A DNA stretch of 63,841 bases, filler included, from Rozella allomycis CSF55 (Eukaryota): NCBI GenBank assembly GCA_000442015.1. It is 13 parts of 13 records of this genome, joined end to end, with 100 filler letters (N's around TTAATTAATTAA, not from the genome) between each part and the next. Parts side by side here need not be neighbours in the genome. Positions count along the whole stretch, not along the records: positions 1 to 25,060 come from KE560431.1; positions 25,161 to 26,844 come from KE560449.1; positions 26,945 to 30,586 come from KE560450.1; positions 30,687 to 34,283 come from KE560451.1; positions 34,384 to 40,732 come from KE560452.1; positions 40,833 to 42,128 come from KE560455.1; positions 42,229 to 44,897 come from KE560457.1; positions 44,998 to 46,069 come from KE560459.1; 5 more parts are not named here. The stretch is one strand, 5' to 3'. Of the stretch, positions 1,494 to 62,197 are shown piece by piece. Position numbers and translations under genes: made by a program. A model generated the notes under the pieces. It had not been told where the DNA came from, ran no database searches, and saw nothing but the letters and a program-made list of their open reading frames with translations. Within the stretch, counting starts at the first letter, position 1, and every line of letters begins with the position of its first letter.

Positions 1494-2824
1494 ATGGACT
1501 TTCTACATCTGTCTTACAATGATGACAATTTTGCCACCAAAACAAGTGACACACAGGTAAAAATTACTATTTCTTGAAAAAATGGATCCAAGTAGAGTCG
1601 TCATGCATAGAGCGATTCCAAGAAAATAATTCTTTCACACTTAAGAGGCAAGATCACATCGATTTCATTCTTGAAAACTTTGTTAATCTAGAGTCATATA
1701 TGATCAGTCTTGATTCGAGTCAAACTTGGCTGTGTTATTGGATGTGTCATTCTCTTGCACTTTTAGATGCGCCAATACCTCACCAGGAAAAGTATTTGTT
1801 GATTATTTGTTTTAAAAGATTGATAAACACGATTAGATTGTTGCAAAGTGAACAAGGTGGATTCGCTGGAGCGCCTGGAATGATCCCACATCTTGCATCG
1901 TCTTATGCCGCTATTTTGGCTATAGCAACAATTGGGACACCTGAAGCGTACTCCATTGTTAACACAAAGAAACTATATGAATTTTTGGCAAGTGTGAAAC
2001 ATAAAGATGGCTTCTTTTACATGCAGCAAGGAGGTGAAGTCGATGTAAGGGGATGTTACTGCGCTATTGTTTGTGCATATTTAACAGGCATAATGGACGA
2101 TAAACTGACTGAAAATGTAGCGGAATATATTCTAAAGTAGTTTATCATATTTTGAAATAAAAGATGCCAGACATATGAAGGTGGGTTCGGAGGTATTCCC
2201 GATGCTGAAGCGCATGGCGGATACACGTTTTGTGCAGTTGCTGCGCTCAAGATTTTGGGAAGAGTTAAAGATTGCAATATGGACGCTCTTATTGTAAGAA
2301 ATAATGAAATTCTTGACGTAGCGATTTGTTTCATCGAAACAAATGAAATTGGAAGGAGGATTTCAGGGAAGATGCAATAAATTAGTCGATGGGTGTTATT
2401 CATTTTGGCAAGCAGCGATTTTCCCGATAATTGAGAGTGAATTACCGATTCCAGAGTTTCACGCATACAATCAAGGTAGAATATAGTTTTGCAATTTATA
2501 GAAATGCTTCAAAGGTATTTGCTTTGTTGTTGCCAACTTGATCTTGAGGATCACGGGGGAATGTTAGATAAGCCTGAAAAGTAATAGATTTTTTATCAAC
2601 TTAAATGGTATCCAGATTTGTATCATACATGCTATTGTCTCTCTGGTCTTTCTTTATCTCAAAGAATAATTCGTCTGTCGAAAGAAAATCCATTCACTCT
2701 TAGGTGCATGGAAATGTCAGTTATTCTTGGAGACGAATCAAACGAATTAAAAACTACTCATCCCGTATTTAACATTGTATCAACCAAGGTTGATTCCATT
2801 TTGGATTATTTTAAAGTCAAATAA
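1494..2824 (+). CDS. RAM1: Protein farnesyltransferase beta subunit (6 micro-introns, two with non-AG acceptors)
   Basis: Motifs LDSSQTWLCYW, HLASSYAA, GEVDVRGCY, EAHGGYTFC, KLVDGCYSFW and DKPEKYPDLYHTCYCLSGLS. Introns are 26-29 nt. Confidence 0.95.
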
Positions 2825-2872
2825 ATTTAGCATTAATCATCTAGTTTACTTTTCAGTATTTCTAAATTTCAA

Positions 2873-3622
2873 ATGCAATTTTTGAGTAAGCGTTTATTCC
2901 ACTTGTGATCTTAGAATCAGTTATAGATAAAAATTTTGATACAGAATATATAGCCGAACTAACTGGCGAAATAAAGAATCAAATAAAATCGACCATCAGC
3001 AATTTAACCGAAGAATTTCAAAAAGAAAAGAATGAATTCATGGCAAAAAAGGCAGAAATAGACCAGAATGAAACTGAAGAATTTTGGGACAAGTATACAG
3101 AAGATGTGAAGAAGAGAATACTGGAACTTTCAAACGATTCAAGAAATTTTCTTGTCAATCCGCCAGTTGATACAGAATATCAAAGTGATTATGCAACAGA
3201 TTTGCAAAAAGGCATAGTAATGATTAAATAGAGGGTGTAAAGGCTATAATGAAAGTTGATGAAAAACTGCAATCAATGAGATACCAGCTAGTACCAACAA
3301 AGTAAATCGTGAATGTAAATATAATAGAATTGATGATAAAAGTTTTTGGAGAAATTATTTTTACAGAGTTCATATGATTGTAATGGAATCTGAAGACAAT
3401 GTACTGTTTGACAATTCGTCACCAAAAAAGGAAGAACCAATTGTGGTTATGAAGAGTGAAGATAATAATAAAATAGAAAGTTCTGACTGGGATAAAAATT
3501 TGGATAATGAATTGGAAAAATTGGGGCTGAATTTGGATGACGTGGAAATTGAAGGATCGGAAGACGTTGAATTGAATTTGGACGATATTGATAATGAATT
3601 GAACAAATTAACAAATAAATAA
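2873..3622 (+). CDS. BSD-domain protein (3 micro-introns)
   Basis: The spliced product reads DEKLQSMRYQLVPTKIDDKSFWRNYFYRV, the BSD signature, followed by an acidic tail. Confidence 0.8.
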
Positions 3623-3667
3623 AGAAATAATTTTGTCATAATTTTGTAATGTGATAAATTTGATTGT

Positions 3668-4872
3668 TTATTCTGTAACTTTTTCTGAATCATCCAAATT
3701 TTCAATTTCGGATTTTCCAGAATCTGAAGATTTTGCATTTTCATCAATTTGTTTAAGTTCTTCTTTTGCCTTTTTTCTTTCTTGCTGGAGAGCTCGACAC
3801 AATTTTTCTAATTTTTGATTTTGGGTTTTCAAATTATCAATTGACGATTGCATTTTCGTTCTCTTTGATTATTAAAGAGAGAATAAAATACCTCGTCAAT
3901 CATTTCTAGAATATTTTTATTAAAAGTTTCAATCTTTCTGGACTGGTTCTGTTTTTCAATTTCCAGGGATCTATTCTTTTTATTCATCTGTAATTAAAAA
4001 TAAAATTTATTTTACATTATCGATTTCTTTCTTTAAAGTATCAAACATTACGTTGCTTTTATCCAACATTACTTCAACGCTCTTAAACTTTTCTGCATAC
4101 GTGCAAATTTGAGCTTTCATTTCTTTTTCTATAAATGAATATTCAGTGACTTGTCTCGTTAAAGTTTCTACTTGAGAATTCATTTCTGAATTATTCTGAA
4201 TTTGTTGCTGCAATTTAGCTTCAGCTAATTTCAATTCCAAATCTTTCTTTTTCATCAAAGTATTAAAATGTTTCTCACGAAGATCATATTGCTCAACATA
4301 ATTATTATATTGTTCTTTCATCTTCTCATACATCCCCTGTCTCTTTTTTTGCTCCTCTGAATCCTTTTCAATCTTTTCTTTAATATCAGAAATAGCACTT
4401 TCAAATTTTGATGACAATTCATCTCTCTTCTTTTCAGCCTCTTTTGATGCCTTCAATGCTTCTTCTCTCACACTCTTATTGTCCTTTTGTAGTTCTCTAC
4501 ACAAATTCTCTAGTTTTTTAGATTTCGCACTATCTTGAATCACTTTAAATAAATAACTATAAAAGTTATTACATTGTTCGCGTTCCTTTATCAATAAATC
4601 ACATTTATTCTTTAAAGTGATGTAACTACTCTCAAGATGCTTCAAATCTTTAATCAGAAATTAAATATAAATTATTTAATTACCAAATAATGATCTTGCA
4701 TAGAGTTGGAAGCGGTTAAAATAGCCTTTCCAATTATTTCACCTAAAATGTACATAAAGAGTCTTTTATTACGAACTGGGATATCTTCAACAGAATATGA
4801 CATTTCTAACTGCTCGAGTCTCGATTTTAATAACTCTATAGAGTCAGGTGATAATTTGCTATTTTGGAGCAT
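3668..4872 (-). CDS. Taxilin-family coiled-coil protein (5 micro-introns)
   Basis: Motifs KLENLCRELQKDNK, QYDLREKHF and KLEKLCRALQQER. Confidence 0.9.
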
Positions 4873-5012
4873 TTGAATTTTGGACCAGGGTCATTCTTAA
4901 TGCATTAATTATTCATTGGAATAGTGGAAAATAGCAAATCACCTCAACATTATTTATTAGTAAATATAAAAAGCAAAAAAGTTCATTGTATGTTGCTTTA
5001 TTTTCGGTAACC

Positions 5013-6394
5013 TTAGAGGGTTAATTCCACATAAAATTCCTCGCCCTTTCCTTTACCTGGCTCTTTATAAATGATGCCGTTATCATGAACCTCAAAATTC
5101 ATGTCTTTCTTTTCCCCACCTATAACCTTTTGCTCAAATATATGGACAGGAATTCTCAACTTGTTCTCAACTAGCACTGCGTCCCCATTTCTCTCAAAAT
5201 ACGCATAATATGGAATATCATAGTCAACGGCCATCCAATCCGAAGCCCCACTAGTGTCTCTAGAGGCACAATTTGCTGATCCCTTCTCACACAACTTGAA
5301 ACTATCATCATTTTTACCCTTTGTTATGAATAAAGGTTTGTCTCCGCGTCCGTATTTAGACTTATTATCTACATACATAAACGCATCTTTCCCTACCCAA
5401 GCACCAGCAAAATCCTTTCCTCTCATCACACCAAGAACAGCTTCTTTTCCGTTCACCAACACGTTATCTACTCTACTGCAAACGTCTCTGAACAGGAAAT
5501 AGTCTCCTTTGCATTCATCTTTGGAATAACAAGGTCGTTCACGGTCTTCAGGGACAAGATAATATCCATTTTCACACTTTTGACAGGCCAATTCGGCGTT
5601 TCTCGTCACGCACCCTTTCGGTAAGCAAACCATTTTTCCATTTAATTCATCTTTGTTCTTGCAATCTTGGTTCAAAGTTTTGTCAACATCCAAACATTTG
5701 TCACCGTCCCTATTTGGCATCTTTTCGCCTTTGCAAGAGTCACATTTTTTCCCATCAGGGCTGTACTTTTCANAGGGGTGTACTTGTCACATTCCGGAAT
5801 AGGAGTTGCGCATATTTTCTTGTTGTTGTCAGTCGTTTGAAATGGGCCATTGTCCTTTAACTCACACTCTTTGCATGTGAGACCTCCAGTAAGATCGTAA
5901 ACTTTGCATCCATTGATGGGCATACCGCAAGCATGGTAATCGTTTTCAGCGTCGACTAGAAGAACTTTGTGGTTGCTATCTTTGCATTCCACACATTGAC
6001 CTCCGCTAACACTTTTACATCCGGGAACTTGAACCTTGGCTTGCGAATTGTTTGTCGTTGATGATGAAGATGAAGACGTAGAAGAAGCCGTCGAGGACGA
6101 CGTCGATGAAGGTGTTTGCGTAGTGGTGGGTCCTGATGCGATAGGCGCCCCTGTACTCGTTGAAGAAGCACCTGAGTTTGCTAAAGGAGGTACCGCTATT
6201 CCTGAATTCGGCGGCCAATAGTTTGAAGCCAAAGGACCAGAATACATCGAGGGAAACACTGGACGACCGTATTGGTCATATCCAATTGGCATCTGATAAC
6301 CGTAGTACCCTCCTTGAATATTTTGTGGACGCACACCTGTTGGCGCGCTTATTGATATTCCTAGTAATGCTGGAAGAACAAGAAACTTGTGCAT
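5013..6394 (-). CDS. Secreted CXXC-rich protein, paralogue 1 (frame broken at an assembly N, 5773)
   Basis: Signal peptide, Pro/Gly/Ser/Thr linker, CxxC furin/VSP-like repeats and a beta-rich C-terminal domain. The two ORFs meet at the single N with overlapping DKYTP/EKYSP sequence. Confidence 0.75.
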
Positions 6395-6779
6395 TCGTTT
6401 TGTTACATATTTCTCCTGTTAGCAAAGAATTTATACATCTAATATTAGAAGTTTTAATCTTATTTCAGATAGTATTTCCAGGTAGTAGTACTAAATTTAG
6501 ATCTCAATAATGTTGATGAATTCTAATGCGCTACTCTGTCAGTTGCTACTTCGGCGTTTCCCGCACCATCTTAATAAAATTGGAGATAAATGACGTTTTA
6601 ACTCATTGCCCCTGAAAAGTCAGGCAAGGGTGAATCTGGCGCTACATTGATTGATGAATTAATTAGCATCATCAACTAGATCGATTGCTGGTCACGCTTA
6701 AACGTAAACTATCTTAAAAGCTTCATGAATGTGGTACACTAGTAAATAATTAGATTTATAGCTTTATTATATGTGCTAA

Positions 6780-8252
6780 CTATTGAAGTTCCATCAGGAT
6801 TTCGTAGCATTCCCCTATGTCACTTAACCAAACTCCATCATGTCTAACTACATAGCACAAATCATTAACTTTGCCATCCGAATGCTTTTCCACAAAGGTA
6901 ACGGATACCCTCCACTTATTGTCTTTAAATGATGCATTTCCAATTTTATCCATGGAAATATAATTCCATTTTTCTTTAATATACGAAAGTGACATCCATT
7001 GTTTAGTTTCTGTTCTGAAACCCACGTAATTACTATCACCTTTACCATCAACTTTGCATAGAGCCTTTAAGCCACCCGTGTCTTTTATGTCTTTTATCGT
7101 GTATTCAGGATTATTTCCATTACATTGGTTACCGTATCCTGTCGCAAATTTTGAATATAAATATGTATCATCCCCTTCACAAAGTGCGAATTCATTTCCA
7201 CCATTTTTCAAGATGAGTTTAACTTTTTGGTCATTTTTTATTGCATCCTCCACTTTCATACAACGATTATTCACAAACATGTATTTTCCATTGCATTTAT
7301 CTTTTCCCACACAAGTTTTGTCAAGTAAAAAGTACCCTTAGCCTTCATCGCATTTTGTTGCCTTCCATCCTGTGGCCCCATCTTTTTCACGATCCAACCA
7401 TCCTGTGGGAAGACATTCAATCGCATTATCCTTCTCTTTTCTGTATTTACATTCTGGATCTGATTGGTCGTCCTTTTCAAGGGTTAAACATTTTTTCCCA
7501 TCTGAACTTGGAAGTCTTTTACTACCATTCTCCTTGCAAACATCACAAGTGTTTCCATCAGGCTTGTATTTCTCACAATCAGCAATTGGTGCTACACAAA
7601 TTTTCTTATTCTCAGTGGTAAGAAATGGTCCATTATTCTTATCCGTGCACTCTTTACACGAGAGTTTGTCGCCAGCATCATAGACTTTGCATCCATTCAC
7701 TTCAACACCACATGCGTATACCTTCTTATCAACATCCACCAACAGAGCCTTTTCATTGCCATTGCTACACTTGATACACTTTCCATTAGCGTCACGATTG
7801 CAGCCTGAATCCTCGGCTCTGGCTTGTGAACTACCACTGTTTGTCGTCGAGCTTCCGGTGTTAGATATCGGTGGCACTATGGATCCAAAATTATTAGACT
7901 GGGGAGTTACAATACCCGCTGGACTACCATTGCCGCTTGTCATCGAGTTTCCATTGTTATACGCTGATGGCACTGGTGTCCCAAAATTATTATATTGGGG
8001 ACTTACAATACCCACTGGGCCACCATTTCCCATGGAGCTTGCAAAGTTAGACACTGGTGGGACTGGGCCCCCAAAATATCCCGACTGAGGAGTTACAAAA
8101 CCTGCTTGACCTCCATTTCCATAACCACTACCAGTATTCTGGTATGACGGATTCGGGATTTGATTCTGTTGTGCATAGTTCGGAGGAGGGTAAGGTATTG
8201 GAGCGCTTTTCGCTATTCCTATTAGTACTGCAAGAGCTAAAACGTGTACCAT
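6780..8252 (-). pseudogene. Secreted CXXC-rich protein, paralogue 2, with one in-frame TAA
   Basis: Clear paralogue of 5013-6394 (ACGxxxNGCKVYD, CKECxxKxNGPFxTT). ORFs 7338-8252 and 6780-7310 are in the same frame, separated only by TAA at 7338-7340. Confidence 0.7.
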
Positions 8253-8378
8253 TTAAAACAAGTAGCCCCTTTCTCCTGTTATTTATAGGTCTAATTTAAG
8301 AAACTACATCCTAATAATAGTCTCATGTTGCTTTGAAATCTACATGCCTAAAGTTTGGCAGTGGCATAGTTTCGACGT

Positions 8379-9879
8379 ATGAATGAACAAGAGCTTTTAG
8401 CTGATTTAGACGACCTAGATGATATTTCCGAAAATGAACTAGAAGATAATGCTATCTCTGTAGACGAAAACGAAGTAATACCCGAAAACCAACAATTAGC
8501 AGACTTCAAACTCATACATTCTTATCATCTTAGGCAACTTTTAGATGTAAATTATAAAACAAAGTAACAAAGGCAATTGAAAATGGTATTGAGATAGATG
8601 TTGGCTTTGGCCAAGAAGATCCTCAGTACAAACTCTTATTGCAAGCAAACAAAACAGCCGTTGATATTGATAATGAAATATATCTTATACATAAATTCAT
8701 AAGAGATATTTACTCTCAAAAGTTCCCTGAATTAGAAGGCTCTGTGCTCAATATGGTGGATTATATTAAAGCAGTACAGCTTATCAAAAATGAAACAGTA
8801 AAAAAAGAATATTAATCTTAAAAGGACGTATCCAAAGTTAATCTTCAGCAAGCATTGCCTGCTTCCACCGTGATGACTATATCTGTGGCTGCCTCTACCA
8901 CGACTGGGAAGCCATTAAATCAACATGATTTGGATAGTGTATTGAAGGCTTGTGATATGGCTTTAGAGTTGGAGAATATCAGATGGAAAATATTGGCGTT
9001 TGTTGAAAGCAAAATGACATTTCTGGCGCCAAATCTCTCAGCCTTATTGGGAACCTCAACGGCTGCTAAATTAATGGGAGTTGCTGGAGGATTACTGCCA
9101 CTCTCCAGGCTACCTGGAAATACAATTCAAGTATTAATCAATGCAAATATTAACTAGATTTTGGGTTCACAAAAGAAGCATTTGGCTGGATTTTCATCTG
9201 CTAGTGTCAAGCAACATGTGGGATTTATTTACGAAATGGAATTCATTAAACGCTTGCCCAAAGAATTAAAAATGAAGGCACAAAGAGTCATCGCTTACAA
9301 AGCTGCATTGGCCGCAAGAGTGGATGCCTGCAAGGAAGCACCTGATGGATCCGTTGGAAGAAATTTGAAGCAAGAAATTGATTCCAAGTTTGAGAAATTT
9401 CAAGAACCTCCGCCTTTAAAGAAAATCAAAGCTCTTCCAACGCCTACTGAAGGCCGCAAAAGTAAAAGAGGAGGAAAAAGAGTTCGCCGACAAAAGGAAA
9501 CATTTGCAGTGACTGAATTAAGAAAACTTCAAAACAGAGTTCAATTTGGAGTCCAAGAAGAAGAAATTATCGTAGGGGACACTGTTAAGGGATTAGGTCT
9601 CATTAAAGGAGCATCTGGTCGAGTTAGAACAGCAGCTACTAATGACAAACTTAGAGGTAAACGACTAATATCGATTAGATAGAAAAAATAAAAAAGACTC
9701 GTCAATTAAAACCATTGGCTGCTAATGAATCAGGCTTGGCGACGTCAATCGCCTTTACTCCTGTCCAGGGATTCGAATTGTACAACCCAGAAATTGCAAA
9801 GGCAGAAAAAGAGCAACAAAATTCTTCCAAATACTTTGGCAACATAACTTTTAAAAAGCCAACTTTTGTGCCGAAATAA
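8379..9879 (+). CDS. PRP31: U4/U6.U5 tri-snRNP protein Prp31 (4 micro-introns)
   Basis: NOSIC/Nop motifs IHKFIRDIYSQKFPELE, LAPNLSALLG and LAARVD, then KRGGKRVRRQKE, TELRKLQNRVQFG and SIAFTPVQGFEL. Confidence 0.95.
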
Positions 9880-9913
9880 ATTCCATATTTACAAAGATTT
9901 CATTGAAATGTCT

Positions 9914-11221
9914 TTATTGAAAAAATGCAGAGTACCACGACGCTTTTCCTTTTTGTGCGATTCCTATAACTATCGGAGTACCTAAATACGGTGATTGCCA
10001 TCCATCAACATGAGCAAAATACAAATTCCATGCCATTTTGGACATTAAGGGTACTATCGATTGGCTCCAAGCACATTCTTTTGATGTAGAAACATAGCAC
10101 AGTGGACTAATCACGTATTCCTGGTAAGTGCGAAGTAGCGAGTCTTTTGCAATGGTTGGTTGAACGAATATTAATCTACCTCCAGCTCTTAACGATGAGT
10201 GAATATTATTTAGAATATTCATAATGGTCGAGTTTTTCTCACCATTTAGTGGAAAGCTCCAATCCATGAATATAAAGTCAAACTTGTTGTGCGGCAAAGT
10301 AAAATTGTGCAATGATAGCATGTGTGCATTTTCAGAAAGATGAGAAATACGAAGGTTTGGGGCTTTTGAAATATCAACAAGTGCAGAAAGTTTCACTTTT
10401 GGCTTATTTAAGGTTGTGTATGCAATTCCTGGCAACGGTATAGCAGTGTGAAGCATTTTCGTTACATATTCAACACCTTCATGATATTTAGTTGATAGCA
10501 TATGCAATGGATCGGTTTCATACTTTATCTTTTCCTTTTTGTCTTTGCTATGGGAAGAATTTGGTTTAGACAATGGAGTTACTGTTTCAACTGAATTGCT
10601 CTTCTTTTCTTTTCCTTTTACCGAACTGCTCTTGTTAAAATTTTCAATTATTAATCTTAATCTGTTCGCATAAGCATAGGAATCATCATCGCCGAGGTGC
10701 CCAAGATCTAAGATTTCACCTACCAGGAAAAAGTCAAATATTTGTTTGGGATTCACATTGCTTCCAGTGCCATTTTTCCAGACAATATTTTCAAATGGGT
10801 TCAAGTTCGTTATGTGGTAGAGATACTTATGAACAGGTTGAAGTTTGTGGTAAAATTGAACCGAATGAAGAGCTAAAGAACCACCAGCATAATAAATTGC
10901 CGGCAAAGCATATCCTATGAGTGATGATCCAAACAATATGGCCATGAGAAAACTTGTGAGGAAAGCAATAAAATATGCGTTTTTGTTTGGTCCAATCTTT
11001 CCCGCTTCTTTTTCCTTGACGTTTTTCAAAGTTTTTTCAGGTATAGTATTCAGCGGCTTCTTTTCTGAAATTGGTTTCAATACTTCGTCCTCTCTTTTTA
11101 TTTCAAGGTGCTCTTCTTCTTCAGCTCTTGAACCTGTGCTCTCTCTGGAAATGCTACGACGGCGAGGAGAACGAGAATTGGACTTTTTATTCCGCGTTGA
11201 TGAGCGAACAACTTTTGTCAT
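9914..11221 (-). CDS. Membrane-anchored class I SAM methyltransferase-like protein
   Basis: Basic N-terminus, a TM segment, GEILDLG, and FDFIF...LNNIHSSLRAGGRLIF. Intronless. The SAM-binding motif looks degenerate. Confidence 0.55.
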   Translation of the reverse strand: MTKVVRSSTRNKKSNSRSPRRRSISRESTGSRAEEEEHLEIKREDEVLKPISEKKPLNTIPEKTLKNVKEKEAGKIGPNKNAYFIAFLTSFLMAILFGSSLIGYALPAIYYAGGSLALHSVQFYHKLQPVHKYLYHITNLNPFENIVWKNGTGSNVNPKQIFDFFLVGEILDLGHLGDDDSYAYANRLRLIIENFNKSSSVKGKEKKSNSVETVTPLSKPNSSHSKDKKEKIKYETDPLHMLSTKYHEGVEYVTKMLHTAIPLPGIAYTTLNKPKVKLSALVDISKAPNLRISHLSENAHMLSLHNFTLPHNKFDFIFMDWSFPLNGEKNSTIMNILNNIHSSLRAGGRLIFVQPTIAKDSLLRTYQEYVISPLCYVSTSKECAWSQSIVPLMSKMAWNLYFAHVDGWQSPYLGTPIVIGIAQKGKASWYSAFFQ

Positions 11222-11313
11222 AGAATTCGGTTGCTAGGAACTCTTGTAAACACTTAATTAGGTTAAGGCAGGGTGAAATTGTAACCAAATAGATAATTGA
11301 AACAAACTTTATT

Positions 11314-12399
11314 TTAAGGTATTTGATGAGAAATTATTTTGTCGTACCAATACTTTGCATAAACTATTTCTGGTAAAGTATCAGGCCCGGGTTGATATTG
11401 TTCAAGTACTTCCTGGGTCAGATCATCCCATGATTTCAAAATAATGACTTTGCTTGTATTATTGAAAGCAGCATTCATAGTTGAGTCCAAAACTATAGGA
11501 ATAGCACCCATGACAAGGGCTTCCCAGGTCCGGTGACAATCAAGTCCATTACCCCTTGGGCTTAAAACAAACTTTGAATCAATCAAATCTTCTAAATATT
11601 GATTATATGGAATTCTATTTTTTAATATTTTCACATTGTTTAAATCGCGAAACCTGTTTTCCAAAGCAGCGCGCGCTCCATCCGTCTCCAGCTTCATGTT
11701 GATATAAAGCAACGTTTTTCTTTCATTAAATTTTTTTCGTTTATTGGACATTTCACTAATGAGACGAATGTTACCATGTCCCCAAATAACATTCGCTAGT
11801 CCGATCGGCAAAGGATGAACTTTTTCATGTATCATATCAGCGTTTTGAGGAAACCAAGCAATTAGTTTATCGAAATTTAAAAGACTCTGGTACGGCTCTG
11901 GAGCTGAATGGTCGCTATTTGAAGTAATTAATATGAATGGCTCCTTGACATTCTGAAGAAGGACATTAGTAATGTGTTTCAGCATGTGAGTAGCGACAAA
12001 GACCAGTTCATTTTTCTTGATTCTTTTCGCTATATGCTCATACACTAGATACGATGTATGTTCATCAAACACATGATGGCAAAATGATCTATAAGTGTCA
12101 CCCGATATGAAAGGACATGAAGGTAGCCTGTTGTCGTCTTCGCTTACTTGGATTTTCGGCAGCAATAAACATTCTCGTTCATAGTAGTCTTTATAATAAG
12201 TAGCATTAATGAACTGTTCAGTATCGCTATCTTCTACCTTAAATGTAGAAACATCAATTGTATTTCCTTTAATTTCTAAGCTGGATGCGTCTTTCTTTTC
12301 TTTGTCTCCAGGACTTAAATAAATAAGTATAAGTAATGTTGCAATTGATACCAGAACTAATGATGGAATGCCCTTTGATCTGTAAAGAAATGTCTTCAT
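11314..12399 (-). CDS. Exostosin/GT47-like type II membrane glycosyltransferase, copy A
   Basis: N-terminal TM anchor and YLEDLIDSKFVLSPRGNGLDCHRTWEALVMGAIPI. Intronless. Confidence 0.8.
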   Translation of the reverse strand: MKTFLYRSKGIPSLVLVSIATLLILIYLSPGDKEKKDASSLEIKGNTIDVSTFKVEDSDTEQFINATYYKDYYERECLLLPKIQVSEDDNRLPSCPFISGDTYRSFCHHVFDEHTSYLVYEHIAKRIKKNELVFVATHMLKHITNVLLQNVKEPFILITSNSDHSAPEPYQSLLNFDKLIAWFPQNADMIHEKVHPLPIGLANVIWGHGNIRLISEMSNKRKKFNERKTLLYINMKLETDGARAALENRFRDLNNVKILKNRIPYNQYLEDLIDSKFVLSPRGNGLDCHRTWEALVMGAIPIVLDSTMNAAFNNTSKVIILKSWDDLTQEVLEQYQPGPDTLPEIVYAKYWYDKIISHQIP

Positions 12400-12828
12400 C
12401 CTCGCACTAAATTTTCAAAATTTCCAGTTCGCCGTCATGTGTTAGATTATGATTACACTATATTTTAGTCGCTACTACATGAAAAGTTGTACGGTTGTTA
12501 TACAAGTCCATCTTCCAGTCGATTTGAAAGTGTACCGAAAAATTCACCATATACTTTACCCTTTATAATGTTTATGCCAGCATTATAGAACGATATTGGC
12601 ATATTTGTTAAGGGAATGTTGCGTATTATATAAATCTGTAACCATCTAATTTCTGATTCCATCTTTCATAGAAAACTTATGGTATTATCGTTAAAATTAT
12701 AATTAACTTGGTGTAAATATAAGAAAACAACATCCTTGAGCTTCCATAAATTATAGTCTTCATTGATCTTCACTAAAATAAGTTCAAAATTTGGTTTTGT
12801 GGCTGACGTTTGAACTTTGAAGTTGCAA

Positions 12829-13514
12829 ATGTTTCAAGCTTATATAGAATTCCCTGGCCTTTCAAACCATCTTTTTAACTTTAACGAATCATGTACATAT
12901 AAAGACATTCAAGAAGTTGTATCTAAACATTATAATGTTGATGTATCCAGATATAGGCTCAAAACAAGTCTTGGACTTTATTTGAATGAATCTTTTCATT
13001 TTAAAGAATATTTTAATGTATCTATACCAACATGTATCTCGGTTATGCCGTCTCTCCTCGGCGGGAAAGGTGGATTTGGGAACAGACTTCGTTCACAAGG
13101 TGCCAAAATGTCCATGATTAAAACTACAAATTTTGAAGCTTGCAGAGATCTATCAGGTAGACGATTGAAAACAATACATGACGCTGAAAGACTTGCAAGG
13201 CATATTCTGGAAGAACCAGAAAGAAAGCAAAAGGAAAAGGAAAAATTGAAGAAGAAAATTGAAAAGATTTTGGAAGATCCATTTGAAAGATCTAAAAAGA
13301 AATTCATCGAAGACTCTGAGTTTTTAGATCAGAGCCGAATAACACAGTCTAGAATAGAAGAGGGTGTGATTGCAAGTAATATTTTATGAGGTTTTACATA
13401 GATATTGAGTCAGAAATTATGAAATGTAAAAATAAAGAAAATAATTCAGTCAAGATCAGTAAGAAATGGAATGTCGACTCTGATTCCGATACAGACGAAG
13501 AAACATCAAAATAA
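12829..13514 (+). CDS. SDE2: Sde2 (ubiquitin-fold-activated splicing factor)
   Basis: Ubl region ending LLGG|KGGFG, then NFEACRDLSGRRL. One 26-nt intron near the 3' end. Confidence 0.92.
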
Positions 13515-13573
13515 ATCATTCCTTTACAGAATTAAAACTACTTTATTCTCGAATTCTATACATTTTATTAAAA

Positions 13574-14509
13574 TCATTCTACGGATAATATCTTTTTACA
13601 AAGCGCTCTATATGGTAGTCCACAGCTAACCTTGGTCGGAGCATCAAATTTTCCAGGATTTATTACCACGCATTTGTTATTGTGAGACACTCCGTTCCAT
13701 GAATCAATATAAGTTTTTGAGGTAATACACAAATTCTTGACAATGAAATCATATTCAAAAGATCCCCATAATTCAGCGAGGCTAGCCCCATATTGCTTGC
13801 AAATGTGACGTGCTACCGATTCTCTTCTTAAAGGTAGTACAAAATAGCTAATGACTTGATTTCTTGATGGAGTGCACTTGATAGGTTTAACAACATTTTT
13901 CAAATATAGAATTGGATCGACAACAAACCGAAAACCAGCATCCACTGGTGTCAAACAATCTCCATTGGTGTAAATGTAGCTTAGGTTATCATTTTTCGCT
14001 AACTTTCGCAATGTTTTCAGAGGGCTGCCTGTCTTTAATAACTCCAATCCTTCGGGTGTCGTGTTGAGTGCCTTTAATCTACAGTCCTCTGCAATTTTCC
14101 AAGATGCAGGTAGAAAAATATCAATATCAGTTGTCCAGTTACCGATTTGATTGTTCGAGGTTGAGTCTGCTAGCCATATATCGTCTCCAGAGTTCGAAAT
14201 CAATTTTCCTTGCAGAAAGACAGCAAATGCAACTCCCTGACGTCCCTTTGAGCTTTTTGTCTGTAAAGATATGACAAATGGATCTTGAAGAAGTTTCGTG
14301 TCGTTGTGTGCTATGAATAGAACTGAGTCCTTTGTCGGTTCTCCTTGAACTGTGTCTGCACCAATTGTTAAATTGAATTGGTGAAATGAGGATAAAGCAA
14401 CAACTACGTCAGCCTTAGGGAGCTTCGGATTTAAACTTTTGCTTGATGTTATTATTGAATTGCAGGACATCATGGAGAGCAATACATGAATGAGGAAGAG
14501 TGACTTCAT
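13574..14509 (-). CDS. Secreted lectin-like protein with a C-terminal C-type-lectin-like module
   Basis: Signal peptide, a beta-sandwich-like region with a W..W..SWKIA..C pattern, and C-terminal ARHICKQYGASLAEL...W.G...C......C...ALC. Intronless, with TATAAATA upstream. Confidence 0.55.
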   Translation of the reverse strand: MKSLFLIHVLLSMMSCNSIITSSKSLNPKLPKADVVVALSSFHQFNLTIGADTVQGEPTKDSVLFIAHNDTKLLQDPFVISLQTKSSKGRQGVAFAVFLQGKLISNSGDDIWLADSTSNNQIGNWTTDIDIFLPASWKIAEDCRLKALNTTPEGLELLKTGSPLKTLRKLAKNDNLSYIYTNGDCLTPVDAGFRFVVDPILYLKNVVKPIKCTPSRNQVISYFVLPLRRESVARHICKQYGASLAELWGSFEYDFIVKNLCITSKTYIDSWNGVSHNNKCVVINPGKFDAPTKVSCGLPYRALCKKILSVE

Positions 14510-14804
14510 TGTTTACAATTTTTGAATGGGGGGGGTCCAACGAGGCCGTATTTATAGGGTGGGGTCTTGATTGATTTTCTTAGATAAACAAATATAAATC
14601 CTAATGATAAACAAATATTTCGAGGGGGAATTTTCGAATTGACGATGTAAACAAACATTCACATTTCAATGGGGAGAGAGAATATATTGTAAGAACCGAA
14701 GGCATTAGAAATAAAAAAACAACTAATAAAATAGGAGGATTGAGTCGTATATTATTTCATTATTCAAGTCTAACACCAGTTGTTTCCTAAAATAGGTTCG
14801 GTTA

Positions 14805-15848
14805 ATGGGAATTCATCAAGTCAAAAGGTCAAAAACACTTATTTTAACAATGATTTGTGCAATGTGCTTCTTGTTCATATTCCAACATATGATTAAGCGG
14901 CACCATATCGATTATAATTCTTCATTCAATTCCAAACCGGAAGAACAAAGCATTGATAAAAGAAATTACTACGAAAGAGGATGCGAGAATCTTCCGAAGT
15001 ATCATGTTAACGAGGGTGATATGAAAATACCAGCGTGTCCTTACATTTCTGGCGATACCTTCCGGTCTTTCAGCAACCTAGTGTTTGATGAAACAACCCC
15101 ACAAATGGCATATTCATATAAAGCAGAGAGAATAAGGAAAAATAACTTAGTTTTTGTAGCTACACATTATTTGCGAGAGGTTGAAGCAGCCATTCTAACT
15201 AATACAAGAGAACCATTTATACTAATAACTTCTAACAGTGACGACCCAGCGCCTTCAGCTTACCCAAAATTACTAAATTTTAAATATTTAATAGCTTGGT
15301 TTGCACAAAATGTCGATATGGCACATGAGAAGGTTTATCCACTCCCAATTGGTATCGCAAACTACAAATGGGGTCACGGTAATATCACATTAATCAAACA
15401 TATAGCCGAAAGAAAGAAACCATTTCATAAAAGACAAACTCTGCTTTATGTTAACATGAATGCAGGAACCGATAGATCAGGCGTCAGAGCGACATTAGAA
15501 AAAAGATTTTCTTCATTTTCAAATGTTAAAATTTTGAACGGTCGAGTGCTATACAAAGAATATCTAGAGCATTTACAAGATGCCAAATTTGTACTTAGTC
15601 CGCGGGGGAATGGATTAGATTGTCATCGAACGTGGGAATCAATGATAATGGGTGCTGTACCAATTATTTTGTCTTCTGAAATGGACAAGATGTTTTTTAA
15701 TGTCACCAATGTGATTATTCTGAAAACATGGGAGGAATTAAACGAAGAAATGCTTACGTCATTCAAACCTGACTTTCAAGGTGATGGCTCAGATATAATA
15801 TATGCAAAATATTGGTATGATAAAATCTCTTCGCGAAAGGTTGCTTAA
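14805..15848 (+). CDS. Exostosin/GT47-like glycosyltransferase, copy B
   Basis: Paralogue of 11314-12399 (CPYISGDTFRSF, AKFVLSPRGNGLDCHRTWE, YAKYWYDKI). Intronless. Confidence 0.8.
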   Translation: MGIHQVKRSKTLILTMICAMCFLFIFQHMIKRHHIDYNSSFNSKPEEQSIDKRNYYERGCENLPKYHVNEGDMKIPACPYISGDTFRSFSNLVFDETTPQMAYSYKAERIRKNNLVFVATHYLREVEAAILTNTREPFILITSNSDDPAPSAYPKLLNFKYLIAWFAQNVDMAHEKVYPLPIGIANYKWGHGNITLIKHIAERKKPFHKRQTLLYVNMNAGTDRSGVRATLEKRFSSFSNVKILNGRVLYKEYLEHLQDAKFVLSPRGNGLDCHRTWESMIMGAVPIILSSEMDKMFFNVTNVIILKTWEELNEEMLTSFKPDFQGDGSDIIYAKYWYDKISSRKVA

Positions 15849-15907
15849 CATGATAAATAAACAATTCTTACGTGATCCTTGTTTTGTAATTTTCGGCCTT
15901 CGACAAT

Positions 15908-16495
<588 letters not shown>

Positions 16496-17045
16496 AAGTA
16501 AAAATAAATGGCTAAAAATAAATTTTCAATGCCTTTATCAAGTGTTTTAAACTCTAATTAACCTGAGCCACCACTACCAGTGTTAAATGGACACAAACAT
16601 ACAGTTATTAATCATTACGTCAGTATCAGCGCTCTTCATTGCGCATTTAATGAACTATTTTAATGCTTTTCAGTAATAGTATAAAAGGGGGCAGCAATTA
16701 GAAAGTATGCTTATGTTTTGCTAATAGTCTACCTCGTCGTACTTACAGCCTCCTTTATTTATCCTTACACAGTCATTTCCGAAGATTTTAAAAATGTACT
16801 CCCAATTTAGTTCATTTTAAAGGATCAATATTACATCGCCAAAATTGTAATGACCTTATTAAACATCGGCATATTCCTAGTTTATGTTTTTGATTGGTTT
16901 TATTACCTTCTAATAAAACCAACTATAATTATTGTGCCAGATGAAATTCTTTTCCATTCAAAGAGCGGTTGATGCTATTAAGTTAATTGATAGTAAATTT
17001 ATCATCGAAAACTTTTTATTCCTTTTATATTGAGCTTTTTAATGC

Positions 17046-17618
17046 CTATAAAGTAATGTCCACATCTTTTTGTAACGTCAATTGTTTCCATTCGTTCATT
17101 TTTTGCTCTACTAGCGCATTTATCATTTCTTTTTCCTCTTCATCTTCGCTAGATGTTTCAGAGTCTGAAACGTAAATAATTTCTACAACTAATGACTCCG
17201 TGGACTCCTGTACTAGTGAATCATTCGAAGGCAATTCCGTGTCGTAAACAATTTTTCTCACTGCTAAATTGAAATCGACTTTCTTTACGTTTTCATTTGT
17301 TTTTGTGCCTCTTAGAAGTTCTGTATCTACACAGTCTTGAAAATCTGATACTTCGTCCGCAGGGATACTGATGACATCTTTGGTAACTTTTGCGTCTAGA
17401 TTAGTTAAGTCCTCCGCAGATATTTTTCTATCAAGCTCTTCCAATTCTTTTTTCCTATACTCGTTTTCAAAGCATAGCCCTTGGTCCGCACTACTCAAAA
17501 CATCAATAAATAAGTCATCAGAAGATTCATCATTTTCATTGTATAGACCAAATCTCTTTAATGTCTTTCTGGCCAACTTGGAATAAAACTTTAAGATAAA
17601 AGACATGTTTTGTCTCAA
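17046..17618 (-). CDS. Acidic hypothetical protein (exon boundaries unresolved)
   Basis: 190-codon open frame with no recognisable domain. Confidence 0.45.
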   Translation of the reverse strand: MRQNMSFILKFYSKLARKTLKRFGLYNENDESSDDLFIDVLSSADQGLCFENEYRKKELEELDRKISAEDLTNLDAKVTKDVISIPADEVSDFQDCVDTELLRGTKTNENVKKVDFNLAVRKIVYDTELPSNDSLVQESTESLVVEIIYVSDSETSSEDEEEKEMINALVEQKMNEWKQLTLQKDVDITL

Positions 17619-17941
17619 ATATGTCCGATCACAGTCTAATATTAGGACTCATTTTTTGAAAGTCTATAGATAAATTAAAATTTGGAACGACTGAGAATTT
17701 GAAATTAACGGATCGCAAATCTAGAGATAATTGGAATGAACGATAATACGCGTTTGATAATCGCATGACCAGGGTTAACGAAAGTGACAATTTGATCTTG
17801 AACGGGGTGAATGATTAGGTTGGAACTTGGAAAAAATATTCAATATTTAAATTATTTAATGATATTAATATTCTTACGACTGTTGGGCTACAAATGAAAT
17901 TCTAAAATAGCGTAAATACGTTATAGTAATGAAATTTGAGT

Positions 17942-18541: not shown

Positions 18542-18706
18542 TTTGGTGGCTTGAAACTGTAACGTGATTCTGTGCTAAATATAAGAAGCATTAAAATTGC
18601 AGCGAATAATAACTAAAAAAATTTAAATCAAATTAAATGAATAATGATTCAATTCAAATACAGATTTTCATGTTTGACTTTAACTGTCAAGCCACCCAAA
18701 ACTGTT

Positions 18707-25060: not shown

Positions 25061-25160
25061 NNNNNNNNNNNNNNNNNNNNNNNNNNNNNNNNNNNNNNNN
25101 NNNNTTAATTAATTAANNNNNNNNNNNNNNNNNNNNNNNNNNNNNNNNNNNNNNNNNNNN
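25061..25160. other. Artificial contig linker (N-run with TTAATTAATTAA)
   Basis: The same all-frame-stop spacer recurs near 26845, 30587, 34284, 40733, 42129, 44898, 46070, 48647, 56408, 58050 and 62198. Adjacency across these linkers is not biological. Confidence 0.97.
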
Positions 25161-30686: not shown

Positions 30687-33154
<2,468 letters not shown>

Positions 33155-39602: not shown

Positions 39603-39615
39603 CTCTTATATGCGA

Positions 39616-46844: not shown

Positions 46845-47526
46845 GTGTTGGTGACTGGAAGTGCCGTGAGTTATTTGTCGTTGCATTTTATTAATCGTTA
46901 TGGGATGCTGTTGAAGATTTTATCAAAGTTTGAGCTGCGTAGATTGTGCCGTGTTACTGGAGTAACTGTTCTAGCACGTGTTAGAGTGCCAATGGCTGAA
47001 GAGATTAAATTTTGTGATGTGGTAGAGACTGTTGAGATTCGTGATAGACGCTCAGTGTTTCGACAAGGGGGAGAGAGTTCCTAGACAGTTAGTATTGTAG
47101 TTCGTGGAGGAACTGTGAATTATTTGGATGAAATTGAGAGATCTATTGATGTTGCGGTGAACAATGTGAAATCTTTTGCAAAAGATAATAGATTGGTGGC
47201 TGGTGCAGGTGCCTTTGAGATTGAACTAGCAAGATCGCTTTTAGCACACGGAGAAAGGATTCCGGGGTTGACGCAATGTTCAGTCATCAGTGATAAAATT
47301 TGGATAAGCATTGCAAATAATCCCGCGCACTCTAGATGAGAATGCAGGGTTTGATTCAACAGCTGAGATTGCCAATCTGTTTGCGCTCCATGAACAAAGC
47401 AGCGCAACGTTGGGATTTAGCGTTGAAGAAGGTGGCCAAATTGATGCAGCGGAAGAGAGAATTTTTGATTCTCATGCGATTAAATTAATAAGATTGGCGA
47501 CAGACGCAGCTCTCAACGATAAGTAA
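46845..47526 (+). pseudogene. CCT8: Degenerate fragment of chaperonin CCT8 (theta)
   Basis: SKFELRRLCRVTG, IVVRGGT.NYLDEIERSID and RLVAGAGAFEIELA, with stops and frameshifts. No 5' half. Confidence 0.85.
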
Positions 47527-47558
47527 AGATTTTGTGTTTCTATTTTTAGATTCTGGCA

Positions 47559-48040
47559 CAGTGACTCTCAGCCGAGCCGAGCCGAGTGCCTTGTTGAAAT
47601 TTACATTGGGGTCCTTGAAGTTTTCTCTCATATCCGGGTCCCAGTTAGTGCTTTGATGTTTTATATGATGTCTTTAACAAAAATCTGACAATTACCAGTA
47701 AAAACTCTCGAGAGGTTTGAAACTTACCGTGAGGGTCCTGGACGTTTTGCTGGAAATCACGATTCTAACCAGCCTATTAATGTTCCACTAGTCATAAATA
47801 TAATTAATAGAATATGCGTTAATGTTTAAAGCTCCACTGATTTCTTTGGATCTATAATATATATATATAGAATCGATTGAGTAAAAATGGCTACAGATAA
47901 AGTCACCAGAAAATTTCATCAGTGTTATTGAACATGTTATTGATACGAACAAGAAATTAATGGTCAAAATTATTAACCTCGGCTCTGCTCGGCTATGACA
48001 TTGTCATTGATACGAACAAGAAATTAATGGTCAAATTTAT
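47559..48040. mobile_element. MITE-like element with imperfect terminal inverted repeats and AGCCG subterminal repeats
   Basis: Left end CAGTGACTCTCAGCCGAGCCGAGCCGAG versus right end (reverse complement) CAATGTCATAGCCGAGCAGAGCCGAG. Internal sequence is shared with 22850-22960. Confidence 0.6.
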
Positions 48041-56400: not shown

Positions 56401-56559
56401 AAGTATCNNNNNNNNNNNNNNNNNNNNNNNNNNNNNNNNNNNNNNNNNNNNTTAATTAATTAANNNNNNNNNNNNNNNNNNNNNNNNNNNNNNNNNNNNN
56501 NNNNNNNGAGAAGTTGAAGCCCAGGAGGGGTGAAGGAACTTAGATGACAAAGACTTTCG

Positions 56560-59059: not shown

Positions 59060-60330
59060 AACAAATAAATCATTTTAGTTATTCATTGATATATAACTTA
59101 TTGACTTTCTTGCTTTTGGGGGTATGATGTGTCGCCTTGGACGTAATCAGTGATGGCATTCAATCACGTAGGTGATTTGCACATGATCCGTATCGACAGT
59201 TTCCAGCATTCCAAATGCCCTGATTACCCCTCGCCTATTGTGAATAGTATTCAATACTTTGTTTTAATAGCTAAGATATTGATATACATTGCTGAATGTG
59301 GACCAATCGTGGTTTGNGAAATAAATCATTTTAATTATTCATTTATGTATATATTATTGACTTTCTTGCTTTTGTGAGGATATGATGTGTCGCCTTTGAA
59401 GTAATCAGTGATTGTATGCAGGTGGTTTGCACGTGATCCGTGATTTACAATTTCCAGCATTCCAAATCCTCTGATTACCCCTCGCCTATTGTAAAANTTC
59501 GGGCCAAGGTCAGCTGCATCTTGCTGCTAAAGCACGCACGAATTATTGACAAAATGATATCCTAATAGTAATAAACATCTAATCATGATTTNTAGTCAAT
59601 TCACGCTTCGTGCTCGTATCCTTCATGGAAAATGTTTGTTCAGTCCACGCATAGCTTTTCACTTTGGTTTATTGAATATTGAGATTATGTAAATCCATGT
59701 ATGCTCAAGCCAATTTACCTTTTCAAACCATCTGGGGATGTATGATTTACAGTGGAATGAANAGTTTATTGTCGCTCAATCGTTTTCGGAGATTTTCGGT
59801 GATTCAGGTCGGCATTCATGGACTTAATGCGGACGCTGCAGATTCCAGGTTCTTAATGTACTCTGCAGATTCCATCAACCTGGAGAGATACATTATTGGT
59901 TTTTAGCATATTTCTAACTATTACACCCGCGTTGTGTTCCATGGAAATATGGTGACCGTGNAAATCTAATTAACTTGACGCAGATCAGCTGCTGCAGATT
60001 ACAGCCTCTGCAGATTCCATTAACCAGGAGAGAGATACATTATTGGTTTTTAGCANCTATTAAATCTAATTAACTTGACTCACATCCGCCGATGCAGATT
60101 CCAGATTCTTAATGCGCTCTGCAGATGCCATTAACCTGGAGAGAGATACATAATTGGTTTTTAGCATATTTCTAACTATAACACCCGCGTTGTGTTCCAT
60201 GGAAATATGGTGATCGTGTATTTGCATATCACATATTACATGTGCACCTCGATTGGCCAAAGTTTAACTTAACCCGCTTAGTGAATTCACGCCTCGAGCT
60301 TGTATCCTTCATGGAAAATGTTTGTTTCGT
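59060..60330. repeat. Diverged tandem duplications separated by single Ns
   Basis: 59063-59245 matches 59319-59497. The block gcagattccat.aacctggagagatacat...ccatggaaatatggtga occurs 2-3 times in 59865-60215. Confidence 0.75.
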
Positions 60331-61344
60331 TTTGTATTCATTACACTGTAAATCATGAGCACCTTACTTGGATTTCCTCATTCGATTCTTCAATCAAGCG
60401 AGAGTTTGCGAATCGGTTTCAAAATTACCTAGAACATATACGAAAAACCGGATGAACTGCCTGGGTTTTATGATTCTCTGGAGAATTCTACAGTACATAG
60501 TTTTGGAAATTANAAGCTGCCTTGCGACAACGTTAGCATCATAGTTTTCATCAACGACTGCTCTAACATCAGCAGCATTTTGAGTAGCATCAACCTCATT
60601 ATCCATATACGCGACTGCAATAGAATCAAAAACGTTTTTATCAACGACTGTTCTAACATTAGCATCCACTCTAGCCCCAATTGAGTCGGAAATCTGATTT
60701 GCAATCTTCCGTACGGACTCTATTTTCGAGGAAGGCCTGAAAGAGTTTTTGTTAGCAATTTACCTTTAATTATTTACGAAATTATTGGCTATGCGGTTTC
60801 AAGTCGCAGTCTATTTCCTGCATGCACTGAATTCGTCTCGTTTGTAAAAGGTTAGATCCTTTATTAAACTGAATAAATAACATTTTTCTACATTACGCGA
60901 ATTTATCTGCGATAGCTTTATGCGTAGGTAACAAACAAGGTGGTGACATTTTTTCGATATTTCTAAAATGAGGGTTCAAATTCAGTTCAAATTTCCTAAT
61001 GTCGATTTTTCCGAAAGAAANCTAGGCACGTTTTTTCGATATTACTAAAAAGAGGGTTCAATCCCGAACGAAAGTGTAGCTAATTTTTTTAATATATCAA
61101 CCGAAGTTGATATATTAAAGAGAGGGAATCCATTGGTCAAAATCACCTTGGAATCTATCCAAGCCCTCCAGTAAATTTCTAAGAAATTAAGCTTTATAAA
61201 CCGCATCCACTGGGAATTGAACGGGATTACTACCTAAAGTCTTGAAAATGCCAGCGCCCTGTCCACTGAAAATCGATTTCAAAATTACCTAGAAAATTTA
61301 CGAAAAAGCTTGTTTGTTTGGAAATTTCCCAAATTTCGTTTTTC

Positions 61345-62197
61345 ATGAGTTCTCATTCTAAGAGGCCAAGAGAGGAAGAAAACGAATTAGAAGAAAGATC
61401 AATCGACGCAGAAATAAAAGCCTGGGTTGCGCAAGACGGTGTAGACATCACAGACATCCCAGTCAATTTACTACCGTTCAAAGAGCGGGTGTTGGACTTG
61501 TTAAAGGAAAAGGTTGCACAACAAATACGAATAGAAGAACTTAAAGCGGAAATCGCGACATTAACTCATTTACGCAAACTAGCCGAGAAAAAAAAAGACC
61601 TCCATACATTCATTAAAGATGTAACGTTCTTGACAGACGATGTACGGCAATCCTTCATAGACACAGTTTTAAAAATNGAATGACATCCATACATTCATTA
61701 AAGATGTAACATTCTTGACAGACGATGTACGGCAATCCTTCATAGACACAGTTTTAAAAATTCCACAGGATCAATTCGATTGTTTAGTTCATGATAAGGG
61801 GCAAAAATATGAAAAATATTCTATACTCAAAGACGTGATGAAGAAAGCAGGTTTGGGGCTCAAAGAAATTGATGTAAGCGTGTTTGGTGTAGAAAGTAAA
61901 CATATATCTATAATCTCACATTGACCCATTATTAATGCATAGTCCATCTGGGCTCAAAAATCAATGGCACTATGGGGCGCTCGGTTTTCTTTTTTGTAGG
62001 CCTATGGACAATTACGGACTCCCTATAACCCTTAAATCAAAAAATATAGCATATTTTGTTAATCTCTATGAGAAGGACGAATATGAAAACTTGAATAATT
62101 ATTTTCCCTCGGCAATAAATTTATGCGTCTCCATGTGCAAGATGTACCAGAATGAAACAGATCGTCGCGGAGCTTGTAAATTTTTAATATGGTTTTT
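61345..62197 (+). CDS. Crinkler/REase-associated-family-like protein (3' partial)
   Basis: Coiled-coil N-terminus, then SPS...CRPMDNYGLPITL...AINLCVSMCKMYQNETDRR, a pattern seen upstream of PD-(D/E)XK domains in fungal CRN-like proteins. One GT..TG intron. Confidence 0.45.

Follow-up and report, generated by a model that had tools for sequence, protein, structure and literature searches.

Candidate non-AG acceptors among the micro-introns of Rozella allomycis

Can a spliceosome that locates its acceptor largely by distance dispense with the A of the terminal AG? The question is raised by a 63,841-nucleotide stretch of DNA from Rozella allomycis CSF55 (the window), in which the genes for the beta subunit of farnesyltransferase (FTase-beta) and for MLH1 contain very short introns, some of which appear to end in TG or GG. 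An earlier reading of the window by eye (the original prediction) proposed that its introns have a 3' splice site set by distance and that five of them end in something other than AG. Alignments with homologues show that, in both genes, only joins after TG or GG would yield gapless, motif-complete proteins. The explanation that best accommodates the observations, and toward which we lean on balance, is a class of micro-introns confined to a distance window, a minority of which would be ligated after TG or GG.

Junctions in the FTase-beta and MLH1 genes

Junctions were evaluated with homologue profiles, against which every in-frame, stop-free acceptor variant of an intron was scored. The AG introns of three genes served as calibration: in 11 of 13 the test ranked the AG end first, and scores were flat for MLH1 intron 36561-36588, which lies in a linker.

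The FTase-beta gene matches FTase beta chains in the PDB (E = 1.4e-42), has 1,504 homologues, and is otherwise intact across its 398 codons. Against a profile of 70 homologues, the spliced model scores 496.2 bits, versus 444.2 bits for an AG-only model resembling the deposited one. The intron at 2581-2607 is a strong candidate, the best supported of the non-AG cases: its TG variant (496.2 bits) exceeds the neighboring variants (490.4 and 490.3 bits) on the same profile. When the predicted protein is aligned to the human beta chain, the upstream exon extends to P354/E355 and the downstream D falls at 359, such that K, Y, and P fill 356-358 gaplessly (the alignment of the upstream exon by itself is weak, with E of about 3). 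Positions in the Pfam Prenyltrans family are 270 for the last residue of the upstream exon and 273 for the P of the downstream exon. In all three alignments (PDB, Pfam, and profile), the join is gapless with the TG end alone. The next AG, at 35 nucleotides (nt), is out of frame, and the deposited AG-only protein P0001 jumps to a far AG, losing the block aligned to DFYHTCYCLSGLS. That block contains the YHTCY motif, whose histidine serves as the enzyme's zinc ligand, and a model of this kind scores 52 bits lower.

The GG variant of the FTase-beta intron at 1557-1585 is also the best of its set, at 496.2 bits versus 493.1 bits for a 20-nt variant. An in-frame AG alternative of 41 nt, present in P0001, is 9.5 bits lower (494.0 versus 484.5 bits, relative values).

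MLH1 corresponds to the deposited protein P0151 (Mlh1, Rozella allomycis CSF55; 100% identical), matches PDB entry 4p7a, and is otherwise intact across 715 codons. For the intron at 36688-36713, the TG end scores 384.7 bits, compared to 375.3 bits for a 38-nt AG alternative that loses four residues aligned to VHFL, and only the TG version aligns without gaps to three fungal MLH1 proteins. Two other MLH1 introns that end in GAG are each the best variant, by 4.9 bits at 36863-36888, where the downstream exon begins RLVE and aligns to residue 266 of 4p7a, and by 3.4 bits at 37498-37524, whose removal brings back a GHKL motif block absent from the deposited model. The AG-only P0151 lacks the GHKL DxGxG block as well as RL and VLLE.

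These results bear out, by homology, the proposal that several introns of conserved genes would give an intact protein only with a TG or GG end. The companion claim that standard gene predictors misannotate such introns agrees with the deposited models of FTase-beta, MLH1, and taxilin, all of which are AG-only and lack catalytic or conserved motifs. Other searches added little: a PDB search with a 33-residue MLH1 exon returned no match, Pfam searches with short upstream exons returned no useful match, and one metagenome scan for close relatives found only an FTase match of 36% identity (L001), with which introns could not be compared.

Table 1. Positions of introns, genes, and other features in the window (positions count along the whole stretch)
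Feature	Position	Strand	Length (nt)	Description
FTase-beta gene	1494-2824	+		6 introns: 4 AG, 1 GG, 1 TG
FTase-beta candidate intron	1557-1585	+	29	GTAAAA..AATGG, acceptor GG
FTase-beta intron	1792-1818	+	27	In-frame, stop-free GT..AG; retained in deposited P0001
FTase-beta candidate intron	2581-2607	+	27	GTAATAG..AAATG, acceptor TG
Taxilin-family gene	3668-4872	-		Pfam Taxilin, E = 1.6e-44; deposited model P0155
Taxilin candidate intron	4655-4683	-	29	Starts GTAATT, TG end; alternative 44-nt GT..AG
Stop-free intron	4743-4772	-		Multiple of 3
Cysteine-rich protein genes	5013-8252	-		Tandem genes, secreted products
PRP31 gene	8379-9879	+		Splicing factor; Nop and Prp31_C domains, 4 canonical introns
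GT47 exostosin-like gene	11317-12414	-
SDE2 gene	12829-13514	+		Splicing factor; SDE2 domain, 1 intron
GT47 exostosin-like gene	14796-15845	+
RPN3 intron	25929-25956			Internal TTTTAG skipped
MCM-like gene	~30785-32718	+		Frameshifts after IYGH, between GIYVGADT and QAAGLT, and at ILAAD/NPKGG
MLH1 gene	35382-37742	-		8 introns: 7 AG (2 of them GAG), 1 TG
MLH1 candidate intron	36688-36713	-	26	GTAAAAG..TAATG, acceptor TG
MLH1 intron	36863-36888	-	26	Ends AAGAG; AG at 24 nt skipped
MLH1 intron	37498-37524	-	27	Ends CAAGAG; AG at 25 nt skipped
Mitochondrial-carrier intron	40459-40484	+	26	Ends GGAGAG; internal TGCAG at nt 11
CCT/TCP-1-like gene	~46880-47560	+		In-frame TAG and TAA, plus frameshift
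Candidate intron (doubtful)	61896-61923	+	28	Starts GTAAAC, TG end
Kinase-like hypothetical gene	61926-62195	+		Paralogue of P0160
Spacers between contigs	25105, 26889, 30631, 34328, 40777, 42173, 44942, 46114, 48691, 56452, 58094, 62242

The micro-intron class and its acceptors

The candidates resemble a larger class of introns in the window. An unconstrained exon-chaining model (codon log-odds, GT..AG introns of 18 to 42 nt, AG ends only) predicted 87 introns, 45 of which measure 26 to 29 nt, with the remaining lengths scattered and mostly spurious. A curated set of 40 GT..AG introns consists of 38 initial cases, minus 4 that were doubtful, plus 6 placed by homology or by reading of open reading frames (ORFs); the set was chosen with a filter for 24 to 31 nt and a GTA start, and its length limits are partly by construction. 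Within it, lengths of 26 nt are the most common (15 introns), followed by 27 nt (9), 28 nt (8), 29 nt (5), 30 nt (2), and 31 nt (1), a narrow class of below 35 nt such as is present in micro-intron genomes. All 40 begin with GTA, as do all five non-AG candidates, in keeping with the very short, GT-starting introns originally described.

Every curated intron ends at the first AG located at 26 nt or beyond, leaving 46 internal AGs unused, among them all 6 at 24 to 25 nt. That closer AGs are ignored had been anticipated, and the two examples offered, the TGCAG of the mitochondrial-carrier intron and the TTTTAG of the RPN3 intron, are present as described. The three GAG acceptors that had been reported were likewise recovered (37498-37524, 36863-36888, and 40459-40484). 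Each is an AGAG in which the second AG is used, consistent with a minimum length of about 26 nt. In the carrier case, a three-frame reading links ..NLYQ to GLPSPLIG...

The acceptor itself has a motif, A-[T/A]-A-G. Of the 40 curated introns, 30 have A at position -4; at position -3, 21 have T, 13 have A, and 3 each have C or G. The A at -4 and the T or A at -3 (34 of 40) make up the sole conserved upstream feature. The earlier view that consistent motifs are missing is therefore overstated, even though no fixed branch motif was noticed.

All five stretches proposed to end in a non-AG dinucleotide were located, each with a GT start and the TG or GG end ascribed to it. The claim that all five are best explained by such ends survives for 1557-1585, 2581-2607, and 36688-36713, which ranked first among the four that were scored; the remaining two, considered below, are flat or doubtful. 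In every candidate, the first AG at 26 nt or beyond (at 36, 35, 36, 36, and 47 nt, in the order of Table 1) is out of frame. Three of the five have an in-frame AG further downstream, which in two of those three gives a lower score. The favored end in each of the three resolved cases finishes in G, keeps the A at -4, and lies at 26 to 29 nt. Given an interior G frequency of 0.14 in introns, the recurrence of a final G in three of three cases carries more weight than coding potential. The proposal that the 3' site is set by distance is upheld with respect to the narrow window, but distance alone is not sufficient, since the supported cases retain both the final G and the A at -4.

Two introns, 1792-1818 and 4743-4772, are stop-free multiples of three, and their retention keeps the frame; at 1792-1818, the retained intron lengthens the deposited protein by 9 residues compared with its human counterpart. 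Introns of this kind are invisible to both frame logic and the chaining model, and intron counts are therefore lower bounds.

Competing explanations

Several observations weigh against reading these ends as acceptors. None of the junctions has RNA support, the one RNA run (X11) giving only spurious pieces of 19 to 33 nt with long loose ends, and in the DNA runs the X4 contig has 63 differing letters whose positions, mostly unlisted, may include acceptor letters. The TG end at 36688-36713 leads a 23-nt variant (382.8 bits) by only 1.9 bits. In calibration, the FTase-beta intron 1792-1818 was misplaced in favor of a 21-nt variant ending in TT (by 7.3 bits), indicating that the profile test is fallible in variable loops. 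Permitting any single extra end dinucleotide raises the score of the chaining model, by 63.1 for TT, 55.1 for TG, 40.7 for TC, and 40.5 for AA; as TT gains more than TG, coding potential alone cannot support a non-AG claim. False cases also occur: one non-AG "intron" at 32307-32337 compensates for a frameshift in the MCM-like gene, and another at 5741-5766 compensates for an assembly artifact at the N at 5773.

The remaining two candidates add to this side of the balance. In the taxilin-family gene, a GTAATT donor follows an ORF that then meets TAA, and the Pfam Taxilin match begins at residue 2 of the exon placed by the earlier reader. Scores against four homologues are flat, at 199 to 205 bits (204.6 for a 23-nt variant, 202.2 for 26 nt, 201.2 for the 29-nt TG version, and 200.4 for the 44-nt AG version). 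The 44-nt version falls outside the 26- to 31-nt class, and the length rule is all that favors TG; the deposited P0155 is AG-only and contains a 15-nt "intron." The stretch at 61896-61923 coincides with a frame change and has no in-frame AG. The gene has no Pfam family, and its sole relative, the paralogue P0160, has no counterpart of the N-terminal part, its start lying shortly before the downstream ORF, such that the locus may consist of two separate ORFs instead of an intron.

As a separate observation, the ORF downstream of this stretch and P0160 are kinase-like hypothetical paralogues with 65% identity, whose C terminus appears by eye to be of the APH type. P0160 lacks 14 residues of the window copy (NQWHYGALGFLFCR), which may reflect another unusual intron or an indel.

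Other approaches were rejected as tests. Exon chaining with a free end dinucleotide picked all kinds of ends, pairwise listing of ORF junctions was too noisy, and a donor-anchored count found an AG option at 22 junctions and none at 25, most of these being off-frame artifacts. A GG "intron" at 40375-40400 proved to be plain coding sequence of the carrier gene.

Among rival explanations, one that survives comparatively well, if still unlikely, holds that the acceptors are really AG and that either base-call errors or a splice-site mutation in one allele, with AG in the other, produced the letters seen. It draws on the draft state of the assembly, which contains 1,217 N and local artifacts at 5773 and 61677, and on the presence of two haplotypes that diverge by about 1.3% (63 differences over 4,912 nt). 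The deposited allelic models differ by 3 residues in FTase, 26 of 625 in MLH1, and 3 in taxilin, a strikingly uneven divergence, and have identical exon structures. That the AG-only exon models recur unchanged in the second allele set counts weakly against the rival, as the models were perhaps transferred.

Reads from three DNA runs (X1, X2, and X4), which cover positions 1-20000 at depths of about 160 to 1,400, limit this explanation further. The X4 contig spanning 1-4912 has 22 gap letters, all of which arise from deletions at 1444 and 3625; accordingly, there is no indel in 1557-1585, 2581-2607, or 4655-4683, and the loss of an A (TAG to TG) is excluded in that haplotype. The X2 contig (1539-2593) is gap-free and differs at 2 letters, and the X1 contig (1919-2593) differs at none, but both terminate at 2593, inside 2581-2607 and with a variant nearby, which leaves the rival some room. 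Among the 40 of 355 differences listed, none lies in a candidate intron, although this share of the total is small enough to count on the rival's side. Error or mutation would also have to place three to five lesions exactly at position -2 while leaving GT donors, terminal G, and the genes themselves otherwise unharmed, a pattern unlike that of random error or decay.

Also unlikely is a tandem arrangement, in which a downstream AG would define the intron in the first step, with TG chosen at ligation and AG isoforms perhaps degraded. An AG does follow the five candidate ends at 7, 8, 7, 10, and 19 nt, and in the human survey every TG site has an AG no more than 28 nt away (PMC2374985). In this sequence, however, an AG is expected by chance within an estimated 12 nt or so, none of the five has its nearest downstream AG in frame, and the 40 AG introns conform to the window rule with no need of a second AG.

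A strict GT-AG rule, under which the true introns would be the longer in-frame AG versions of 41, 44, and 38 nt, or else the products would be truncated or nonfunctional, is quite improbable. The deposited models P0001, P0155, and P0151 do take such AGs, and in taxilin the 29-nt TG and 44-nt AG versions are inseparable by homology. Yet the AG versions lose 9.5 bits in FTase-beta and 9.4 bits in MLH1, and at 2581-2607 the sole AG route forfeits the YHTCY block at the 52-bit cost given above. Moreover, no curated intron exceeds 31 nt (in a set filtered at 24 to 31 nt), and the same deposited models also lose the GHKL motif of MLH1. Least credible of all is that FTase-beta and MLH1 are young pseudogenes, or that the stretches are never removed: decayed MCM-like and CCT-like genes do occur in the window, but FTase-beta and MLH1 are open and conserved throughout except at the acceptor dinucleotide, two acceptor lesions alone in FTase-beta would be very unlikely under neutral decay, and retained stretches would introduce in-frame stops or shift the frame.

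The explanation by distance-limited micro-introns can be set out as follows. These would be U2-type introns of 26 to 31 nt, beginning with GTA and ending in A-[T/A]-A-G, whose 3' splice site would be picked within a narrow range of distances from the 5' splice site, such that AGs short of 26 nt go unused. The AG normally taken is the first one not short of this limit. In a minority (three supported and two open cases, versus about 40 curated AG introns, counts on which the earlier estimate of roughly 1 in 10 would rest), the window would contain no AG, and ligation would most likely follow a TG or GG at 26 to 29 nt, with the terminal G and usually the A at -4 kept and the A at -2 lost. In spliceosome structures, the terminal G of the intron pairs with its first G, a pairing with which tolerance at -2 would fit. 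We infer that RNAs are joined at these TG and GG ends and that the second step, held to a ruler-like distance by steric constraint, would accept a base other than A at -2; the relaxed second-step fidelity of the original prediction may also play a part.

Such an arrangement would probably represent a new form of U2-type splicing. More tentatively, and as a possibility that we would not yet call probable, the A at -2 may be dispensable throughout R. allomycis, a member of the sister lineage of the microsporidia, with 5 to 10% of its introns of about 26 to 31 nt ending constitutively in a TG or GG selected by the distance window together with the terminal G, factors for second-step fidelity lost or altered, and a sizeable share of gene models wrong. 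If RNA confirms the joins, R. allomycis would in its wild-type state use constitutive non-AG (mainly TG) acceptors at the percent level in U2-type introns, and would offer a natural system in which to separate geometry from sequence in 3' splice-site docking. Rozella proteomes are in wide use for rooting the phylogenomics of fungi and microsporidia and for inferring gene loss, and mis-spliced models would inflate both apparent divergence and apparent loss.

Other genes in the window and comparison with known systems

The window is an artificial concatenation of 13 contigs, with 12 N..TTAATTAATTAA..N spacers (0.06 expected by chance) that act as six-frame stop linkers. Gene neighborhoods across spacers are consequently artificial, and RPN3, for example, is cut at 25061-25117. 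The DNA is nuclear and from R. allomycis, its translated proteins matching records under the name R. allomycis CSF55 at 100% identity; it is read with the standard genetic code, with open frames of up to 733 codons, and its G+C content is 32 to 37%. Pfam or PDB matches identified genes for FTase-beta, taxilin, PRP31, SDE2, an EF-hand protein, a WD40 protein, RPN3, RPN2, MLH1, a UCH protease, and GT47 glycosyltransferases, and the mitochondrial-carrier gene was identified solely from reading a three-frame translation. Rfam and tRNA scans of the window returned no matches.

Nothing unusual was noticed in either splicing-factor gene, PRP31 or SDE2. SDE2 has been linked in fission yeast to the splicing of introns with distant 3' ends. 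The predicted products of the tandem genes at 5013-8252 are secreted and rich in cysteine, combining a low-complexity N-terminal part of Ser, Thr, and Gly with CxxC-type modules in repeated copies, and two GT47 exostosin-like genes lie nearby.

Decayed genes and assembly artifacts are also present. In the MCM-like gene (Pfam MCM_OB and MCM P-loop), conserved blocks are interrupted by no fewer than three frameshifts, which point to either a pseudogene or a poor contig. The CCT/TCP-1-like gene, with its stop codons in conserved blocks, is probably a pseudogene, and the chaining model masked these stops with false "introns" starting with GTT. At the single N at 61677, about 70 nt are duplicated on its two sides (61600-61770), and the N at 5773 (5755-5790) accompanies a 17-nt excess missing from two DNA runs; both are scaffolding artifacts that mimic introns or frameshifts.

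Several known systems share features with the Rozella candidates. U12-type introns have their 3' end at a set distance from the branch site and tolerate several end dinucleotides, paralleling the distance-set end and flexible terminal dinucleotide proposed here. Unlike U12-type introns, none of the five candidates begins with the U12 donor motif: RTATCCTT matches the window three times (37370, 59616, and 60302), versus 5.3 expected by chance, and never at a candidate. Aroian et al. reportedly found in 1993 that Caenorhabditis elegans splices at mutated non-AG acceptors, a case in which a U2-type spliceosome likewise ligates at a suitably placed non-AG site. Those cases are mutant alleles of reduced function, whereas the Rozella introns would form a standing wild-type class.

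Micro-introns are known from Paramecium, Nyctotherus, Stentor, chlorarachniophyte nucleomorphs, mikrocytids, myxobolids, and Dicyema (PMC10245619, PMC13644364). As in those genomes, the Rozella introns are of very narrow length below 35 nt, with the 5' signal reduced to GTA and apparently little or no polypyrimidine tract, but the micro-introns in these reports are described with GT..AG ends (PMC10245619, PMC13644364). In Rozella itself, two putative S23 introns of about 30 nt without the motifs of Encephalitozoon cuniculi are mentioned in one source (PMC6349667), beyond which remark the literature search found no description of this length class. Nor did that search, which did not extend to the genome paper (James et al. 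2013) and its supplements, find a description of non-AG acceptors in Rozella.

In humans, TG serves as an alternative 3' splice site of U2-type introns in 36 genes (Szafranski et al. 2007, PMC2374985). As described in that report, these sites resemble the Rozella candidates in having a GT start, a TG end, an AG within 28 nt, and a context like that of ordinary acceptors (PMC2374985). The nearby AG is found in all five candidates and is likely due to chance in this sequence. As described there, human TG is only ever an alternative beside AG, never the sole site, and affects a tiny fraction of introns, which also speaks against our interpretation (PMC2374985). In Rozella, TG or GG would be the sole productive site, in essential genes and in about 7 to 11% of introns, at lengths of 26 to 29 nt.

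A mechanistic parallel comes from yeast lacking Prp18p, in which the choice of 3' splice site is relaxed, non-YAG ends become usable, and nonconsensus sites can interact with the first nucleoside of the intron (Roy et al. 2023, PMC10711555). Such an interaction agrees with the terminal G kept in the Rozella candidates. Fyv6 is also reported to control 3' splice-site choice (PMC11651659). As presented in these sources, the Prp18 and Fyv6 cases are mutant phenotypes involving alternative, mostly unproductive sites, whereas in Rozella the use of TG and GG ends would be a property of the wild type.

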